In this document: piece by piece, positions 2-5,991 of the stretch | Numbering within the stretch: position 1 is the stretch's first letter | Layout: every line of letters begins with the position of its first letter | Source of the DNA: Candidatus Iainarchaeum sp. | Lineage (GTDB): Archaea; Iainarchaeota; Iainarchaeia; Iainarchaeales; CSSED10-239 | Assembly: GCA_003559395.1 (NCBI GenBank) | Contig: PWLL01000057.1 | Location: forward strand, 1-5,991 | Length of the DNA stretch: 5,991 nt | Direction: 5' to 3' | Notes under the pieces: model-generated | What the model saw: the letters and a program-made list of their open reading frames with translations, nothing else | Database searches by the model: none | Told to the model about the DNA's origin: nothing | Translations under genes and position numbers: made by a program

Positions 2-412
2 GAGTGGAGAGATGATGAAGGGAATATTGATTATGAAAAACATTATGCTGTAGTTAGTTGGTTTGAAACTGATTATGATAGACCTGAAACTAGAATGGTT
101 GAATACGAAGTATGTGATGATTATGAAAAAGAGATTAATTGTAGGATTGAGAGGTTTGAAGAAGAATATTTTCCTCACGAAAAAGAAGTGTTTGGTTTTA
201 ATGTAGAAACAAGGATTGCTGAAATGGAAGGAATGCATTGGGAATTATGGGGTTTTGTTAAAACAATACAAACCCAAATAACAAACATATTAAACAGGTT
301 GACTGGAGCAGAAGCAAGAATAGAAAGTTTAGAAGCAGAAAATGTTTTAATCAAAAACGAATTATGCGAAAAGGATAATTCGTATTCTTGGTGTAGAACC
401 ATAATAAAATAA
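2..412 (+). CDS. 3' end of a hypothetical acidic protein with a coiled-coil C-terminus (5'-truncated by the window edge)
   Basis: Frame 2 is open from nt 2; EWRDDEGNIDYEKHYAVVSWFETDYDRPETR precedes the Met at 95. No purine-rich RBS precedes ATG 95, so the gene probably starts upstream of the window. Stop TAA at 410-412. The protein is D/E-rich. The stretch TQITNILNRLTGAEARIESLEAENVLIKNEL looks heptad-like. No family recognised. Confidence 0.6.
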   Translation, partial: EWRDDEGNIDYEKHYAVVSWFETDYDRPETRMVEYEVCDDYEKEINCRIERFEEEYFPHEKEVFGFNVETRIAEMEGMHWELWGFVKTIQTQITNILNRLTGAEARIESLEAENVLIKNELCEKDNSYSWCRTIIK

Positions 413-532: not shown

Positions 533-557
533 TTATATACAAGTTCGGTATATAAAT
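533..557 (+). promoter_or_regulatory. Candidate archaeal-type TATA boxes upstream of the 1148-aa gene
   Basis: TTATATA at 533-539 and TATATAAAT at 549-557 lie in the 202-nt non-coding spacer. The second box is about 60 nt upstream of ATG 615. That would place a start site near 580 and leave a short leader containing GTGAT (605-609, part of the GGAGGTGATC-type SD). This is motif-level evidence only, in AT-rich DNA. Confidence 0.3.
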
Positions 558-614
558 TATTATGTTTTCAAAAATAATCGAAAAACAAAAAACTATTAAT
601 AATAGTGATGTTTA

Positions 615-3600
615 ATGGGAAGCTATAGTTATTTCAAACCAGCTGCACAACCCAGTGTCCCTTCTTGGTTTAAACCAGGTGTTGTTGCTGCGGCCACCAA
701 AAAAGTAGAACAACACACTGGTAGGTCTTTTATTAGTGGTAGTGGTGGAACAATTTCTAGTGGTGCTGGTGTTTCTAGAGGCAGTGGTGGTTCTGCACCC
801 GCTAGACCTGCTCCAATTACTTATTCTTCTAGTTTGTTAGGCCAAACATTTACAAGCAAAGACGCATTACAAAAAGCTGAAACCCAATACAAACAACAAC
901 AAGCAGAAATTGCTCGTCAAGAACAAGTAAAAAAAAGCGAAGACTTGAGAAAAACCTTGACACAAAAAGATTTCGAAACAAGACAATTTCGAGCAAGTCT
1001 AATGGCTGATGATGTATCAAGAACAATTCCAGCAAGCCAATTATTATCACAACAAGATACTAGAATGATTACCCCTCCTCCTCCAAGCACAAGAACCATA
1101 AAAGACAGGTACAAAATAGCAGAAGCTACTAGACAACCAGGTTGGATGAGAACAAGACTAGCTTACGGAAAACTTGGTCAAACAACAGGAACTTTTAGTT
1201 TATTAGGCGATTATGACGAAAAAAAACAAGCTGAATTAGAAAAAGATATTGAAAAAAAAACTGGTGAAATCGAAGCTCGTCAAGAAAGATATGAAAAAGC
1301 TAAAAAAGAAGCTACTAGAGATGATGAAAAATTACAAGAAGACTTAAAATTGTTGGATGAAAGAATCAAAAAAACAACTACTTATTGGCAAGAAAGAGAC
1401 ATAGAACCTGATAAACCAGGCATTACTCTTAGTGAAGAAGATTACAAGATTTATAAAACACAAACGATTCCTCTTTTAGAAAGATACCAAAAACAAGCCG
1501 ATGATTTAAAATATAAAATAGATGTTAGAAAATCCAAGTTACAGACTGTTGAATCTCTTGGTTTTGATGTTCGTTGGAGACAAAAAGATTTTGAAGATAA
1601 ATATGGAGAAGTTTTTAGTGCTGCTGATGATTTCGAAAAATCAAGAAAAGAATTGAGTGGTTACGGTTTGGATGCTGAAAAAATTAGGGGTTATGATATT
1701 GACAAAGCTGAATATGATTATTCTCCTTTTCAAAAAGGAAACCTTGATTTGGTTGCGAGTGGTGGTCTTGCTTTTTCTACTATTACTGGAAAAAAAGAAG
1801 AGTTAACAGAACCCGTTTTGAGAACACAAAAAGATATTGATACTCTAAAAACGTTTGGTGGTCAAAGAGCGTATAGAGAAACTTTGTTAAAACCTTTTGA
1901 TCCTATTGATGCTGGTTCTAGGATTGCTTCAAGTGCTATGGTTGTTGGGGGTATTGGTGCTGTTGGTGGGAGTGCTATAGGTTCAGGAATACCTTTAATA
2001 GGTACTGGTATTGGTGCGGTTAGTGGTTTTGTGGTTGGAGCTAAAGCTGGTGCTGTTGGTGGTATAGCTGATGTTGTTGCTAGTGAAACTGTTGGTCGTG
2101 TTTATGGTGATGAAAAGATTGGTCGGACTGCTGGTTTTGTTGCTGGTATTGTTGGTACTGTTGGAGCATCAAAATATTTTATGGGTAAAGAGTTTGCTAA
2201 GCGGACTGTTGTTAAAACACTAAAACCTACTATTGCACAACAAGTTCTTGAACAACGGGTTGTTGAAGGAAAAATTGTGACTGGTAAAGGATTGGTTAAA
2301 GGACAAATAATCCAACCTTATGAAATCAAGGTTTTGGCTAGTCAAGGAAAAATTGATAAGTTTATTGCTAAAGGTGTTTCAAAATTAACTGGTAAACCAC
2401 CAAAAACTGTTTTGAAAACTATTACTAGAGAACAAAAATTTATTGTTGAACAAGAATTAGATTTTATAGCTAAACAAGGACTAACAGTTTATCCTAGTGG
2501 AGATTTGGCTGCGACATCTAAACTTCCTGTTATTGGTGGTAAAAAAACTTTTTTTATAGCAGAATCTATTGCACCAACAACCAAGATTATTGAAACAACC
2601 AAGACAAGTCCTTTTAGAGAAAAACTTGCTAGTTTTATTATTCCAGGCAAAACAAAAGGTTTGGCTGCACAAGATGGAACAAAGTTTCAAAATTTTTGGA
2701 TTGACAAACCAAAAACAGTAACCCAAAAAATTGCTAGTCGTGTTAGAGGAGAAAAATTTGTTGACGATTCTTATTTCAGAGACATGGGGTTTTATCAACC
2801 AGTTTATCAAACTAGAGATGGTCGAGTTTTAACTTTCGTTGACAAGGTGAGCACGGTTTCGACTCCTAGAGGAATACAAATTACTCGTATGGTGGATTTG
2901 AAAGATGGTAAAGAGTTTTTGGGGACTTCTGGTTTTTGGGATTTTGGGAAAAAATTAACAGCAACACAGTTTGTTGGTAAAAGATTACCCGAAATCCTTA
3001 AACCCAGTGGTTCCAAAATCTTGTCTATTACTGGAGAAAAACCTCTTGCGTTGCCTGGAATAGTAACAGGAAAAGGAGTAACGAGTATGAGTTTTGCAGA
3101 AGCTTCTAAACAATTAACTCAACAAAAAGCGTTGTCTGTAGTGGCTAGTGGTCAGTTAAAACAAGTTAGTTTGGGTATACAAAAAGATGTGAGTGCTAGG
3201 AGTCTTGGTATTGTTGCTCCTGGTTATTTAAAGTCGAGTTATGGTGGTGGTATAGTATTGGCTAAAGCTGGTAGGATTAGAGGTTATGACGGTGCTGTGG
3301 ATTATACTGATGTTGGTGTTGATAGTGTTGGAACAGTTTCTAGACCAGCGAGTTTGTCTACACCGAGTGTTGGTGGCTTGACTAGTATTGATTTTAAAGA
3401 GCGTGTTGATGTTGGTGTGAAAGATGTTTTTGTTGATAGGACTAAGGTGTTTCAACCTTACAAAGTTTTTTCTCCTACAATTTCGAAAGTGGTTGTTGGT
3501 CAAAAACTTGGTTATGATAAGGTTGATAGGTTTAGGGTTGATGGTAAGATAGTTGATAGGTTGGATACTTCTCAAGATACTAGGCTTGTTGATAGGCTTG

Positions 3601-4061
3601 GCTTGGGTCAAGGAACTATTATGCAGGTTGGACAAGTTACGATGCAAGATACTAGGCTTGTTGATAGGTTAAGTTTAGTTGATAGGTTGGATACTCCAAG
3701 ACCAGTGATCGATTTTAAAATAAAAATCTCTCCACCAATCCCTCCACCTATTGTTGGTGGTGGCCTGCCTGGTTTTGGTAGGTTTGATGTTGGGTTTGGA
3801 GTGCCTAAACAACCGAGAAGAAGAAAAGCGGGTAGGGTTAGTCCTTTGTTTGCTATTAAAAGCGATTTTTATAGGAAGTTTGTTACAGGAGAAAAAGATT
3901 TGTTAGTATCAAAAGAAAACGTTGCGTTAGTAAAGGGTTTGAGAGCAAGAAAGGGTTCTTTGTTAGCGTTTATTCCGACAAAAGAATTGTTGGCTAAGAA
4001 AAAAAAGAGTAGAAAGAGTTTTTGGGAGGATTCTGGATGGTTGAAGAAGTTCGGTCTTTAA
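615..4061 (+). CDS. Large (1148 aa) mosaic structural-type protein of unknown family; candidates are a virion fibre or ejection protein, or a tape-measure-like protein
   Basis: Uninterrupted 3447-nt ORF. ATG 615 is the first start after the in-frame TGA at 606-608. GTGAT lies 5 nt upstream. Codon usage is consistent along the ORF. There is no signal peptide, no Walker A motif and no catalytic motif I recognise. Stop TAA at 4059-4061. Confidence 0.93.
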   Translation: MGSYSYFKPAAQPSVPSWFKPGVVAAATKKVEQHTGRSFISGSGGTISSGAGVSRGSGGSAPARPAPITYSSSLLGQTFTSKDALQKAETQYKQQQAEIARQEQVKKSEDLRKTLTQKDFETRQFRASLMADDVSRTIPASQLLSQQDTRMITPPPPSTRTIKDRYKIAEATRQPGWMRTRLAYGKLGQTTGTFSLLGDYDEKKQAELEKDIEKKTGEIEARQERYEKAKKEATRDDEKLQEDLKLLDERIKKTTTYWQERDIEPDKPGITLSEEDYKIYKTQTIPLLERYQKQADDLKYKIDVRKSKLQTVESLGFDVRWRQKDFEDKYGEVFSAADDFEKSRKELSGYGLDAEKIRGYDIDKAEYDYSPFQKGNLDLVASGGLAFSTITGKKEELTEPVLRTQKDIDTLKTFGGQRAYRETLLKPFDPIDAGSRIASSAMVVGGIGAVGGSAIGSGIPLIGTGIGAVSGFVVGAKAGAVGGIADVVASETVGRVYGDEKIGRTAGFVAGIVGTVGASKYFMGKEFAKRTVVKTLKPTIAQQVLEQRVVEGKIVTGKGLVKGQIIQPYEIKVLASQGKIDKFIAKGVSKLTGKPPKTVLKTITREQKFIVEQELDFIAKQGLTVYPSGDLAATSKLPVIGGKKTFFIAESIAPTTKIIETTKTSPFREKLASFIIPGKTKGLAAQDGTKFQNFWIDKPKTVTQKIASRVRGEKFVDDSYFRDMGFYQPVYQTRDGRVLTFVDKVSTVSTPRGIQITRMVDLKDGKEFLGTSGFWDFGKKLTATQFVGKRLPEILKPSGSKILSITGEKPLALPGIVTGKGVTSMSFAEASKQLTQQKALSVVASGQLKQVSLGIQKDVSARSLGIVAPGYLKSSYGGGIVLAKAGRIRGYDGAVDYTDVGVDSVGTVSRPASLSTPSVGGLTSIDFKERVDVGVKDVFVDRTKVFQPYKVFSPTISKVVVGQKLGYDKVDRFRVDGKIVDRLDTSQDTRLVDRLGLGQGTIMQVGQVTMQDTRLVDRLSLVDRLDTPRPVIDFKIKISPPIPPPIVGGGLPGFGRFDVGFGVPKQPRRRKAGRVSPLFAIKSDFYRKFVTGEKDLLVSKENVALVKGLRARKGSLLAFIPTKELLAKKKKSRKSFWEDSGWLKKFGL
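1212..1544 (+). other. K/E/Q-rich predicted coiled-coil region of the 1148-aa protein (aa ~200-310; a shorter one at aa ~80-125, nt 852-989)
   Basis: Sequences such as DEKKQAELEKDIEKKTGEIEARQERYEKAKKEATRDDEKLQEDLKLLDERIKK and KDALQKAETQYKQQQAEIARQEQVKKSEDLRK are charged, helix-favouring and free of Pro/Gly. Judged by eye; no coiled-coil predictor was run. Confidence 0.5.
1923..2171 (+). other. Glycine-zipper / GxxxG-rich hydrophobic segment (aa 437-519), a putative membrane-inserting hairpin
   Basis: IASSAMVVGGIGAVGGSAIGSGIPLIGTGIGAVSGFVVGAKAGAVGGIADVVA is about 53 residues with one Lys and one Asp as its only charges. A second stretch follows, TAGFVAGIVGTVGAS. The DNA is low-complexity GGT/GTT/GCT, with repeats TGCTGTTGGTGG (1958-1969 and 2051-2062) and GGTATTGGTGC (1950-1960 and 2008-2018). 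Confidence 0.7.
3522..3695 (+). repeat. In-frame VDR(L) repeat array with perfect 24-nt and 20-nt direct repeats inside the 1148-aa gene
   Basis: GTTGATAGG (Val-Asp-Arg) occurs at 3522, 3552, 3588, 3660 and 3678, plus an outlier at 3432, all in the coding frame. CAAGATACTAGGCTTGTTGATAGG is perfect at 3573-3596 and 3645-3668. TAGTTGATAGGTTGGATACT is perfect at 3550-3569 and 3676-3695. Confidence 0.9.
3807..4058 (+). other. Basic C-terminal tail of the 1148-aa protein, preceded by a PPIPPP hinge (3732-3749)
   Basis: KQPRRRKAGRVSPLFAIKSDFYRKFVTGEKDLLVSKENVALVKGLRARKGSLLAFIPTKELLAKKKKSRKSFWEDSGWLKKFGL is strongly K/R-rich. Its function (nucleic-acid or membrane-surface binding) is only inferred. 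Confidence 0.5.
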
Positions 4062-4177
4062 AAAAACGTTTGAAACGTAAGGGTTTGTTGATGGGTTTGG
4101 AGTGTTTGTCTCCTGAAGAAGAAGCTATTATTCAAAAGAACTTGTTGTATAGGTTAAAGAGGAGTATGAGAAAATGA
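4037..4177 (+). CDS. Unlisted 46-aa basic protein (MVEEVRSLKKRLKRKGLLMGLECLSPEEEAIIQKNLLYRLKRSMRK)
   Basis: Translated by hand; it falls below the ORF-track size cutoff. GGGAGGA at 4024-4030 lies 6 nt before ATG 4037. The ORF overlaps the last 25 nt of the giant gene. Its TGA (4175-4177) overlaps ATG 4174 of the next gene as ATGA. It fills an otherwise 112-nt gap in a tightly packed operon. It has 13 K/R against 6 E. An alternative internal start at ATG 4091 is possible. Confidence 0.5.
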   Translation: MVEEVRSLKKRLKRKGLLMGLECLSPEEEAIIQKNLLYRLKRSMRK

Positions 4178-4383
4178 ATTTTTTGTACGGTTTCATAATG
4201 TTTTTTATTGGATTGATTACTATTGTTGCTTTTCTTCCAATGTATAACGAGGTTATTTCACTTATCCCTTATTCGGGTATTGTTATTACTTTGTGTGGGG
4301 TAATGGTTTTGTTACTCGTAGTTGGTTTAATTTATCGTTTATACGCTGATAGCGTTTATACTGGTACAGGAGGGAGAATATGA
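4174..4383 (+). CDS. Small two-TM hydrophobic protein, paralogue A (69 aa); candidate capsid or membrane protein, or a holin-like protein
   Basis: GAGGAG at 4159-4164 lies 9 nt upstream of ATG 4174. Two hydrophobic helices are present, FLYGFIMFFIGLITIVAFLPM and IVITLCGVMVLLLVVGLIYRLY. It shares the block IGLIxIVAFLPxxN with the next gene. Its stop TGA (4381-4383) overlaps the next ATG. Confidence 0.85.
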   Translation: MNFLYGFIMFFIGLITIVAFLPMYNEVISLIPYSGIVITLCGVMVLLLVVGLIYRLYADSVYTGTGGRI

Positions 4384-4637
4384 ATTGGTTAAACAAACGA
4401 GGTCAAGGAAGCATTTTTTCGTTTTTCACCTTGTTAATCGGGTTGATTTTAATCGTGGCTTTTTTGCCATTGTTGAACGACTTGGTTGCTATTGGTGTTG
4501 CGAGTAATATGAGTGCTCTTGGTTTTGGGTCAATAATTAATTTGATGCTTGGGATGACAGGAATACTTTTAGTATTATTGTTTTTCATGGGTGTTATTAG
4601 TGATTTCCAAACAAGACAACAATATTATGGACCATAA
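4380..4637 (+). CDS. Small two-TM hydrophobic protein, paralogue B (85 aa)
   Basis: AGGAGGG at 4368-4374 lies 5 nt upstream of ATG 4380, which forms an ATGA overlap with the upstream stop. It has a short basic N-terminus (NKRGQGS). Its two helices are IFSFFTLLIGLILIVAFLPLL and IINLMLGMTGILLVLLFFMGVI. Stop TAA at 4635-4637. Confidence 0.85.
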   Translation: MNWLNKRGQGSIFSFFTLLIGLILIVAFLPLLNDLVAIGVASNMSALGFGSIINLMLGMTGILLVLLFFMGVISDFQTRQQYYGP

Positions 4638-4651
4638 AATGGTTTTTTTTT
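4631..4651 (+). terminator. Short hairpin plus T-run at the end of the operon
   Basis: ACCAT (4631-4635), AAA loop, ATGGT (4639-4643), running into a T9 tract (4643-4651) immediately after the stop codon. The stem is only 5 bp. The T-run alone would fit archaeal oligo-T termination. Confidence 0.5.
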
Positions 4652-4668
4652 GGGAAGCTTGAACAAAG

Positions 4669-4678
4669 TTTTTTTTTT
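4669..4678 (+). terminator. Second oligo-T tract (T10), a possible back-up terminator
   Basis: T10 at 4669-4678 with no convincing upstream hairpin. A third tract, T8, lies at 4751-4758 in a similar context (AAAGTTTTTTTTGA). Confidence 0.35.
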
Positions 4679-4689
4679 GAGGAGAATGA

Positions 4690-4701
4690 GTGTGTGTGTG
4701 T
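4690..4701. repeat. (GT)6 dinucleotide microsatellite in the intergenic region
   Basis: GTGTGTGTGTGT read directly at 4690-4701, between the T10 tract and the LamG gene. Function unknown. Confidence 0.9.
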
Positions 4702-4780
4702 AATATTGGTTCGATGGTTGGGAGACCTTTTGCAGGTAAGAAGAAGAAAGTTTTTTTTGAAGAAACAGAATCTTTTGTTA

Positions 4781-4786
4781 AGGAGG
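4781..4786 (+). promoter_or_regulatory. Shine-Dalgarno site of the LamG-domain gene
   Basis: AGGAGG at 4781-4786 (extended context AAGGAGGAT), 7 nt before ATG 4794. Confidence 0.7.
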
Positions 4787-4793
4787 ATTCTTT

Positions 4794-4856
4794 ATGAATT
4801 ATAAACTTCTTTTTGTTGGAGTATTATTCTTGTTTTTAATAGGAAGCGTACACGCT
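4794..4856 (+). other. Predicted Sec-type signal peptide (aa 1-21, cleavage after VHA)
   Basis: Lys at position 4, hydrophobic core LLFVGVLFLFLIG, and small residues at -3/-1 (V-H-A) before SLTDD. Confidence 0.7.
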
Positions 4857-5991
4857 AGTTTAACAGACGACTTGGTTTCTTATTATAAATTAGATGGAAC
4901 AACAGGTGTTGTTGTAGACGAACTTGGAACTAATGACGGAACTAATTATGGTGCAACACGAGGAGTAACAGGAATAATTAATAATGCTTTTGAATTTGAC
5001 GGAACAAATGATTATGTTATAAGTGATTTTGATTTAGATGATTATCCTTTTAGTTTTTCTGGATGGTTTTATATACCCGAAGGAAGTAGTGGTGGTGTAG
5101 TTATGACTATTTCAGATATAACAGCACCTAATAGACATGTATATATTAGTGCTTCTGAAATTAATGAAACAATAACATTATTAGTAAGAATGGATCCATC
5201 TGGATCAGAAGAATATGCATATATAATAAAAGATATTGAGAGTATAAATCTTGTTGAAAAATGGATTCATGTAACAGGTGTTTGGGTGAGTTCAAGTGAA
5301 AGGTATTTATATGTTAATGGAGAAATTGTGACTGGTGGAGATGATACTAAACAAACTAATTCATTTAATACTAATATAAACAAATTTGTTCTTGGCAGAA
5401 GATATACTAGTTATGGAACCCAAAATTATTTTGATGGTAAAATAGACGAGGTTGGTATTTGGTCTCGTGCTTTAACAAGCAATGAAATAACAACTTTATA
5501 TAATAGTGGTTCAGGTTTAACATATCCTTTTACTGAGGTTAATGCTAATTTTGATTTTAGTTTAAATTACGAAACAGCAACTGCGACTTTAACAGATACC
5601 TCGACTACAACAGATGCTGTTGAAATTACTAATTGGTTATGGACAATAGACGGAAACACTTTATCAACAGACCAAAACACTAGTTTTGTTTTCACAGCAA
5701 ACACAGATTATAACATAGGATTATTTGTTGATACAAACGTTCCTGATTTAAATTCACAAATATATAAAACAATTAGTATTCCTGGAACAGCAAACTTTAC
5801 TTTTTATGATGAAGACACAGAAGCACTACTAAACGATGTTGTTTACACTATTAGTCCAAGCATTAATGGTGTTAGTGGGGGAACACTAACAGACACAAAC
5901 ACACTAGACTTAAACTTGCAAGGAATAACAAGCCAAGAATACACTTTTACATTTAGCAAAGAAAACTACGGAACAAGAACCTACCAAACCA
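4794..5991 (+). CDS. Secreted LamG (concanavalin A-like lectin) / PKD-like / beta-sandwich surface protein, 3'-truncated by the window edge
   Basis: Translated by hand: 399 codons without a stop, from ATG 4794 to the window end. It is missing from the ORF track because no stop lies in the window. It has a strong SD. N-terminus MNYKLLFVGVLFLFLIGSVHA|SL. It then shows Laminin_G_3 hallmarks: LVSYYKLDG..DELGTNDGTNYGA...AFEFDGTNDYV ... YFDGKIDEVGIWSRALTSNEITTLYN. Confidence 0.92.
   Translation, partial: MNYKLLFVGVLFLFLIGSVHASLTDDLVSYYKLDGTTGVVVDELGTNDGTNYGATRGVTGIINNAFEFDGTNDYVISDFDLDDYPFSFSGWFYIPEGSSGGVVMTISDITAPNRHVYISASEINETITLLVRMDPSGSEEYAYIIKDIESINLVEKWIHVTGVWVSSSERYLYVNGEIVTGGDDTKQTNSFNTNINKFVLGRRYTSYGTQNYFDGKIDEVGIWSRALTSNEITTLYNSGSGLTYPFTEVNANFDFSLNYETATATLTDTSTTTDAVEITNWLWTIDGNTLSTDQNTSFVFTANTDYNIGLFVDTNVPDLNSQIYKTISIPGTANFTFYDEDTEALLNDVVYTISPSINGVSGGTLTDTNTLDLNLQGITSQEYTFTFSKENYGTRTYQT
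4860..5531 (+). other. LamG / Laminin_G_3 (concanavalin A-like lectin/glucanase fold) domain, aa ~23-246
   Basis: The motif pattern typical of PF13385-type domains is present. It opens with L..YY.LDG, then G.NDGT..GA and A..FDG..DYV. It continues with W.H..GV, LY.NG and FDG.IDEV.IW.RALT..EI..LY. Recognised by eye; no HMM was run. Confidence 0.8.
5538..5783 (+). other. PKD-like Ig-fold domain, aa ~249-330
   Basis: ANFDFSLNYETATATLTDTSTTTDAVEITNWLWTIDGNTLSTDQNTSFVFTANTDYNIGLFVDTN..SQIYKTISI follows the PKD pattern: A.F...(strand).F.D.S......W.W.FGDG......H.F...G.Y.V.L.V.D......I.V. The core here reads W-L-W-T-I-D-G, a degenerate form of the WDFGDG core. Confidence 0.55.
5784..5991 (+). other. 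Start of a further beta-sandwich domain (carboxypeptidase-regulatory-like pattern), truncated
   Basis: FTFYDEDTEALLNDVVYTISPSINGVSGGTLTDTNTLDLNLQGITSQEYTFTFSKENYGTRTY resembles the V.D..T..PL..A.V......TD.NG...L..L..G.Y...S..GY pattern. This is a weak call made by eye. Confidence 0.3.

Follow-up and report, generated by a model that had tools for sequence, protein, structure and literature searches.

We analysed the whole of contig PWLL01000057.1, a stretch of 5,991 bp with a GC content of 34.6% (hereafter the window), together with related loci found in metagenomes. The window carries a block of co-oriented genes encoding a large basic protein of a family that we call F1, two small membrane proteins predicted to be helix hairpins (types A and B) and a secreted protein with a LamG domain, and this block is probably the virion-structural and host-recognition module of a new, uncultivated and environmentally widespread lineage of spindle-type archaeal viruses. 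Because the window is an entire contig, genomic context was taken from the relatives, which are designated by L numbers. The convincing genes are all on the plus strand, and the open reading frames (ORFs) and other features are laid out as follows.

Positions 2 to 412, plus strand: ORF0, the 3' part of a gene, encoding an acidic protein with a coiled-coil-like C-terminus and a net charge of -17.
Positions 615 to 4061, plus strand: ORF1, 1148 aa, the large basic protein of family F1.
Positions 1905 to 2219, plus strand: Gly-zipper patch of ORF1 (aa 431-535), delimited by blastn conservation and hydrophobicity.
Positions 3840 to 4058, plus strand: C-terminal domain of ORF1 (aa 1076-1148), delimited by invariant alignment columns.
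Positions 4037 to 4177, plus strand: ORF2, 46 aa, basic, strain-specific and doubtful as a gene.
Positions 4174 to 4383, plus strand: ORF3, 69 aa, type A hairpin and candidate capsid subunit.
Positions 4380 to 4637, plus strand: ORF4, 85 aa, type B hairpin and candidate major capsid subunit.
Positions 4643 to 4758, plus strand: oligo-T spacer with three T-runs and (GT)6, a putative terminator region.
Positions 4794 to 5991, plus strand: ORF5, more than 399 aa and running off the window, a secreted LamG/PKD-like protein.

ORF1 overlaps ORF2 by 25 nt, and the ORF2/ORF3 and ORF3/ORF4 junctions each overlap by 4 nt (ATGA), bearing out the one-directional, tightly coupled cluster described in a first-pass annotation that had been made from the sequence alone. 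The 1148-aa protein reported there is ORF1, which has no Pfam domain. The large F1 protein, hairpins A and B and the variable secreted putative adhesin form a conserved, co-oriented and translationally coupled block.

The adjacent proteins encoded by ORF3 and ORF4 (69 and 85 aa) are paralogues (BLASTP E 8e-7) with two hydrophobic segments apiece, as the first-pass annotation had proposed. The helix hairpin suspected there was also obtained for ORF4 with AlphaFold2, which, from a 56-sequence alignment, modelled helices at residues 6-41 and 50-81 with a mean predicted local distance difference test score (pLDDT) of 80. Type A hairpins, exemplified by ORF3 and including family members P0008 and P0011-P0014, have the pattern MNFLYGF..GLI..AFLP.YNE.., followed by a second helix and a polar tail. 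Type B hairpins, to which ORF4 belongs, begin with a short variable leader and an invariant G-Q (mostly [KR]GQG[ST]); helix 1, which closes with LP..N, is then followed by helix 2 and by the conserved tail VISDFQTRQxY. Of the module's proteins, ORF4 is the best conserved, retrieving 90 clusters at E<=0.01. At the level of architecture, the pair agrees with the capsid proteins of spindle-shaped viruses, which have about 70-100 aa, two hydrophobic helices and one or two paralogues. We propose that ORF3 and ORF4 would be membrane-derived alpha-helical hairpin capsid subunits forming the particle body, as do VP1 and VP3 in SSV1 and VP21 in His1, and that ORF4 may be cleaved at its invariant G|Q site, a site reminiscent of archaeal class III (prepilin-type) signal peptides.

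The profile comparisons with known capsid proteins to which the first-pass annotation had looked gave nothing significant: hhalign probabilities of the hairpins against SSV VP1/VP3, His1 VP21, PAV1 ORF121 and the small proteins of LSV-48N were 0.1-11% (6% with SSV VP1/VP3; 0.3% and 1.7% in comparisons with His1 VP21 and PAV1 ORF121). The hairpins also have no match in PHROG, and neither do His1 VP21 and PAV1 ORF121. Since the known spindle-virus capsid proteins themselves miss each other in hidden Markov model searches, these non-matches neither confirm nor exclude common descent. A tblastn search of 50,697 phage records with ORF4 returned nothing at E<5, and a Foldseek search of the ORF4 model against PDB and BFVD returned nothing below E 1, a method that does not discriminate among helix hairpins.

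A third family of small hairpins, F10, occurs in relatives (L031 15339-15614, L061 14369-14560, L058 13169-13381, L067 15703-15978 and L037 1-192). Its members have 70-91 aa and a KGQ[AS] leader, and their second helix begins with L[IV]P[LW], like those of SSV1 VP1 and His1 VP21. The hhalign matches of F10 to these two proteins are collinear and not significant (probability 9-11%). F10 could be the true major capsid protein.

The order of large protein, hairpin A, hairpin B and secreted protein, the last often with LamG, recurs in about 50 metagenome contigs that we fetched. Scans of IMG/VR, JGI and GTDB with ORF1 alone or with its alignment A2 found nothing, and a broader alignment, A3, led to 27 JGI/ENA loci. 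Profile scans with ORF1/A2 and with ORF4 found the module in none of the 185,579 GTDB species genomes (representatives), which argues against a core cellular gene cluster, and it was likewise absent from the 50,697 phage records. Near the module in relatives are genes of the mobile-element type, namely an N6/N4 DNA methyltransferase, a D5-type superfamily 3 (SF3) helicase and IS200/IS605 genes. We read the cluster as a conserved mobile-element module as opposed to an ordinary chromosomal gene set, in keeping with the remark in the first-pass annotation that nothing here looks metabolic or informational. In one lineage the SF3 helicase (D5_N/DUF5906) is encoded 1.7 kb downstream of the hairpin pair, and in another the IS200/IS605 genes tnpA and tnpB are inserted directly after it; the loci of these genes are L035 2690-4000, L042 6344-7917 and L045 10964-11383.

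The four longest loci, L031, L058, L061 and L067, come from contigs of 25.3, 25.3, 36.3 and 30.5 kb, respectively. They are strictly unidirectional, and nearly all of their proteins are without a family, many being small membrane proteins. ORF1, ORF3, ORF4 and ORF5 of the window match four consecutive genes of L067 with E values of 2e-15, 7e-12, 4e-25 and 5e-36. L067 has 31 genes on one strand, and the Pfam assignments among them are limited to the LamG/PKD protein, a beta-solenoid protein and a P-loop ATPase. The gene order downstream of the module is common to L031 and L061, L058 keeps its first part, and L067, judging by its gene sizes, probably follows it too. Included in it are the F10 hairpin and a 369-aa polytopic membrane protein with a DGDSYYYLN motif near its N-terminus (L031 14198-15307, L061 13161-14270, L058 11998-13110), which by eye resembles a GT-C glycosyltransferase and has no match in Pfam, PHROG or PDB.

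These longer loci bear on a first alternative, that the window is the tail module of a tailed archaeal or bacterial virus, with ORF1 as the tape measure, the mini-proteins as holins and the LamG protein as a tail fibre. ORF1 has a weak PHROG match to a tape measure family (E 0.0065) in its low-complexity N-terminal part, tape measure proteins can have Gly-rich hydrophobic patches, and the LamG domain matches phage virion proteins (phrog_8510, 1.6e-10). Against this, searches of 20 kb of L067, 17.8 kb of L031, 16.5 kb of L061 and 13.9 kb of L058 turned up no member of a terminase, portal, HK97 capsid, sheath, tube or baseplate family, which removes the tape-measure and holin reading. Such genes next to the module were what the first-pass annotation had named as the mark of a tailed virus, and in the relatives there are none within up to 10 kb on either side of the pair. 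The phage records gave no match to ORF1 and none at E<5 to ORF4, IMG/VR has none, and the hairpin genes are better conserved than any others of the element, unlike holins. We regard this alternative as largely refuted and very improbable.

The first-pass annotation had also suggested looking for an AAA+ ATPase in the flanks, and one was found in the relative L067. This P-loop ATPase is encoded about 9 kb downstream of the hairpin pair and has the motifs GETGAGKS and IVWDEAG. Its best PHROG is phrog_5484 (E 2e-4, profile positions 25-230 of 239), followed by phrog_11254 (E 6.8e-4), and SSV1 B251 and His1 ORF16, run as controls, belong to phrog_5484 with E values of 5e-101 and 3e-62. The sole tblastn match among the phage records is in LSV-48N (E 2e-13 over 85% of the query), and the two ATPases match at E 3.5e-19 in BLASTP. 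By these sequence matches we assign the L067 ATPase to the B251/His1-ORF16 family, the second signature gene of spindle-shaped archaeal viruses. From synteny we infer that the window's own genome also has a B251-type ATPase, the 5991-base window being too short to hold the gene. This ATPase, encoded elsewhere in the genome, would drive assembly and extrusion of the particle without lysis. PDB profile searches with F1, the 369-aa membrane protein and the ATPase returned nothing.

The module known from spindle-shaped viruses comprises a hairpin capsid protein of about 80 aa (with one or two paralogues), an adhesin and an AAA+ ATPase (10.1101/2021.07.29.453957; 10.1101/2025.02.15.638363). The assignment of our element to the spindle type rests on architecture, synteny and the ATPase, not on similarity of capsid proteins. 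A spindle-virus reading had been put forward in the first-pass annotation, and it was largely right in kind, for a new lineage; its analogies to SSV1 VP2 and VP4 did not hold, and the element is not a fusellovirus in the strict sense, as set out below.

Several observations weigh against assigning the module to a spindle-type virus. The hairpins are not significantly similar to any known capsid protein in sequence, profile or fold, nor is ORF1 to any known virion protein in BLAST and profile searches, and F10 in relatives adds a further candidate for the major capsid protein. The ATPase is known from L067, whose ORF4 counterpart is only 48% identical, and not from the window; its PHROG E values are modest and its score for Pfam AAA_22 is just under the cut-off. 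Profile scans of IMG/VR with ORF1 and ORF4 did not find the module. The loci showed no integrase, no att site, no terminal repeat and no circular closure, although an SSV-type integrase and att repeats at a tRNA gene were among the features that the first-pass annotation had suggested looking for, and 16 loci contained no tRNA genes. Beside distant relatives of the module there are genes for YbjQ, serine hydroxymethyltransferase (SHMT), a Band 7 protein and an ERCC4 nuclease (L037 204-3173; L045 345-3306), and the hairpin B protein P0046, from the module of L055/L056, is also recorded on a 71-kb contig; some copies of the module could therefore be chromosomal or integrated. The YbjQ, SHMT, ERCC4 and Band 7 genes are upstream of the module relatives on the same strand, and may belong either to the element, as auxiliary genes, or to the flanking host DNA. 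We dropped the SHMT, ERCC4 and Band 7 neighbours as proof of a chromosomal location, as the same loci carry an F10 hairpin upstream. The similar sizes of some contigs (24.3-25.3 kb) were considered as a sign of complete genomes, and this was rejected as one such module is also on the 71-kb contig.

Some of the same observations would suit a non-viral origin, either as a mobile element or as a cell-surface island in a DPANN-like archaeon with a small genome. ORF3 and ORF4 would then be subunits, pilin-like or of the membrane, that prepilin peptidase processes; ORF1 and the LamG protein would be surface or attachment proteins for contact with host cells, and the whole would move as a plasmid or integrated element without virions. 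The short basic leader followed by [KR]GQG[ST] is similar to archaeal class III signal peptides, episymbiotic archaea typically carry LamG adhesins and giant surface proteins, and relatives of the module encode a polytopic membrane protein, a GT2 glycosyltransferase and a methyltransferase. The SHMT, ERCC4, YbjQ and Band 7 flanks at some loci, the copy on the 71-kb contig and the lack of any capsid homology in our searches point the same way. Set against these are the absence of the module from all GTDB species representatives and of any pilus-assembly ATPase, platform protein, VirB4 or VirD4 within about 10 kb on either side of the pair in L067; none of these genes was found in the sequenced parts of L031, L061 and L058 either. 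The sole ATPase found belongs to the spindle-virus family, and ORF1 has no signal peptide. As for pilin character, ORF4 has a leader and the invariant G-Q, whereas its second hydrophobic helix is atypical for pilins and it has no match to the Pfam class III signal family. Conjugative pilins of the VirB2/CedA1 type were considered and rejected, there being no VirB4, VirD4 or CedB family at any locus examined. On balance, an element of this non-viral kind, the strongest of the rival readings, seems unlikely.

A virus of another shape would account for the many small membrane proteins in the relatives. The module would then encode the envelope of a vesicle-like, pleomorphic virus or of an infectious plasmid vesicle (of pleolipovirus or pR1SE type), with the hairpins as membrane matrix proteins and the LamG protein as the spike. 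Sequence cannot reveal particle shape, and Foldseek cannot separate helix hairpins from one another. The ATPase is nevertheless of the B251/His1 type with its nearest characterised relative in a lemon-shaped virus, and PHROG searches gave no match to the pleolipovirus VP3, VP4 and VP8 families, making an envelope module of this sort rather improbable.

Under the spindle-type assignment that we favour, the closest comparison is with Haloferax virus LSV-48N (PP151251), whose particles are lemon-shaped and in which its authors recognised no capsid gene (PMC12714723). Its 'DnaA-like' AAA+ ATPase is the one matched by the L067 ATPase. Its layout is also the same, with proteins of 824, 86, 92 and 904 aa followed by small membrane proteins, the two small proteins (86 and 92 aa) having two hydrophobic segments each, and its capsid proteins cannot be recognised by sequence, as is the case here. 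The LSV-48N genome is 24.9 kb, compared with contigs of 25-36 kb here. It differs in that none of its structural proteins is significantly similar to the module proteins, in its GC content (61% versus 32-35% here) and haloarchaeal host, and in having integrases as well as genes on both strands; the loci here run strictly in one direction, and no integrase was seen in them.

Resemblances to SSV1 include the two adjacent paralogous hairpins, one of them with an N-terminal leader as in the SSV1 VP1 precursor, the B251-family ATPase of L067, and a large protein followed by a small two-transmembrane protein, as with VP4 and B78. Unlike SSV1, the module has no conserved counterpart of VP2, the hhalign probability of the hairpins with VP1/VP3 is only 6%, and VP4 is secreted and anchored at its C-terminus whereas ORF1 is basic and lacks a signal peptide. 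No SSV-type integrase is seen here, and hosts and GC content differ from those of the Fuselloviridae. A placement in the Fuselloviridae in the strict sense therefore fails, with no PHROG or BLAST match to fusellovirus structural proteins, an unconserved ORF2 and no integrase or tRNA gene found in the loci. The evidence largely supports a new family-level lineage that is not a fusellovirus. As to the host, composition, the oligo-T terminators and the GQ motif lead us to guess at a low-GC archaeon, possibly of the DPANN group.

His1 (Halspiviridae), the Wyrdviridae and DNSV share the module of an approximately 80-aa hairpin capsid protein, an adhesin and an AAA+ ATPase, the latter two having been compared by description. 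The nanohaloarchaeal DNSV genomes have 21-22 kb and a gene of more than 1900 codons (10.1101/2025.02.15.638363). In contrast to this group, the loci here show no protein-primed DNA polymerase, and His1 VP21 has no significant match to the hairpins. PAV1 has LamG-type proteins (ORF676/678) that have been proposed as adhesins, and by eye its ORF898 resembles ORF1 in having a coiled coil, a hydrophobic Gly patch, 'LDT.QDTR' repeats and a Lys/Trp-rich C-terminus. PAV1 differs in gene order and in its ATPase, ORF375, which belongs to a different PHROG.

The large protein ORF1 begins with a disordered Gly/Ser/Pro N-terminus, a charged coiled-coil-like region and the Gly-zipper hydrophobic patch, and continues with a long, poorly conserved region, 'VDRLDT' repeats, a Pro/Gly linker and the conserved basic C-terminal domain. 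It has a net charge of +57 with neither a signal peptide nor a C-terminal anchor, and the analogy to SSV1 VP4 drawn in the first-pass annotation falls on these features. Profile searches gave no family in Pfam, PHROG or PDB, an exact-sequence look-up gave no match, and tblastn gave none among the phage records. Only 11 relatives were found at E<=1e-3 among 1.84 billion representative proteins. Alignments and DNA comparison show just two conserved parts, the Gly-zipper patch and the last ~100 residues; the long middle region diverges even among relatives. The patch is 69-75% identical to relatives by blastn across window positions 1894-2213, contains 23% Gly and has weak transmembrane-like segments at aa 437-476. 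The C-terminal domain, the segment that retrieves all distant F1 members, has the motif PLFxxKSDxFRKFVTGEKD..EN..L.K...KGS.L..IPTKELL followed by a Lys-rich tail. Its AlphaFold2 model was poor (pLDDT 55, three to four short helices) and unfit for a fold search. ORF1 would be a large basic virion-associated protein, either internal, contacting DNA or membrane, or part of a tail, and it may be anchored or oligomerised by the Gly-zipper patch and docked by the C-terminal domain.

Across loci, F1 proteins range from 1000 to 2500 aa. One member of 2501 aa contains a NUDIX domain (L055 2153-9658; L056 522-8027). In the F1 protein of L004 (40-3714) the N-terminal segment 'KTFTDSSGKKFSTADPQK...QQTALQ' is duplicated internally, and L003 has this gene as two separate ORFs (91-426 and 544-3801). 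By eye, a common segment order can be traced through the 824-aa protein of LSV-48N (L070 4807-10527, minus strand), PAV1 ORF898 (L054 13730-16426) and ORF1, comprising a disordered N-terminus, charged coiled coil, Gly/Ala patch, 'LDT..D' repeats, Pro-rich linker and basic Trp-rich C-terminus, with the C-terminal end FGL in ORF1 and FGGL in LSV-48N. Similarity of ORF1 to PAV1 ORF898 was not significant (BLASTP E 0.3, hhalign probability 0.4%), nor was that to the LSV-48N 824-aa protein, and both resemblances are kept only as a lead.

ORF4 and ORF5 are separated by a 156-nt spacer (window positions 4638-4793) that contains a T9 run at 4643-4651, a T10 run at 4669-4678, (GT)6 at 4690-4701 and a T8 run at 4751-4758. 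The sequence suggests an archaeal-type terminator region followed by a restart of transcription. Two assemblies of the same strain break within this spacer before the LamG gene, L001 at window position 4668 and L002 at 4726. ORF5 has AAGGAGG 7 nt upstream of its ATG and a hydrophobic, signal-like N-terminal segment, followed by a LamG domain at aa 69-232 (nt 4998-5489; Pfam Laminin_G_3, E 1e-20) and PKD-like repeats from about aa 262, whose matches are under the Pfam cut-offs (PKD_3 9e-5, 22.7 versus 26.3 bits). The T-runs and secreted LamG-PKD protein of the first-pass annotation are thus confirmed as to the T-runs and LamG, while its PKD part stays below threshold. ORF5 is 35% identical to the 942-aa LamG/PKD protein of L067.

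Loci L019 and L020 are 99.9% identical over 5 kb, yet about 700 bp of LamG-coding sequence (L019 5953-6660) show no detectable similarity between them, and identity returns in the PKD part. The LamG cassette is replaced in the same way between L003 (4510-5038) and L010. Such a swap is the behaviour expected of an exchangeable receptor-binding domain, and its occurrence between near-identical genomes strengthens the earlier idea of a host-recognition gene. ORF5 is thus a putative receptor-binding adhesin, and its position directly downstream of the hairpins, with cassette-type hypervariability, agrees with the presence of an adhesin in the morphogenetic module that spindle-shaped viruses have. 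It would sit at the tip of the particle and bind the host surface via the exchangeable LamG domain.

Spindle-shaped viruses, regarded as ancient and archaea-specific, are known from few host groups. The module described here defines a set of no fewer than 90 protein clusters, which come from lake, sediment and other metagenomes and are missing from all the reference collections searched, and the ORF4-type hairpin and the F1 C-terminal domain are sequence handles for finding more such genomes. Its ATPase ties these genomes to an isolated virus, LSV-48N, whose capsid genes lack assignment, the G|Q site offers a testable idea of capsid maturation, and the LamG cassette swap offers a natural system for host-range change in uncultivated archaeal viruses. 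A more far-reaching joint reading, which we consider doubtful, would combine three proposals. The module would mark a global archaeal virus group, of family level or higher, that virus-detection pipelines have missed and that is absent from IMG/VR, INPHARED and the GTDB representatives; ORF4-type and F10 capsid precursors would be cut at G|Q by the host prepilin peptidase, borrowing the pilin maturation route; and F1 would share its architecture with LSV-48N gp15 and PAV1 ORF898 as an unrecognised virion component common to lemon-shaped viruses.

The two remaining ORFs of the window vary among the relatives. The 46-aa basic ORF2 exists as first annotated, with 13 K+R against 6 D+E, but the analogy to SSV1 VP2 fails because ORF2 is not conserved: it is present only in the window and in L001 and L002, the two further assemblies of the same strain. 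In most relatives the hairpin A gene directly overlaps the end of the large gene with no ORF2 between them, and window positions 4017-4173 have no blastn match in relatives. ORF2 sits on about 110 bp that are missing from related loci, and it is doubtful as a gene, being either a strain-specific insertion or a non-gene. At the other end of ORF1, ORF0 has no Pfam or PHROG family. None of the related loci has a homologue of it; what precedes the module is thus a variable gene, and ORF0 is outside the conserved module.

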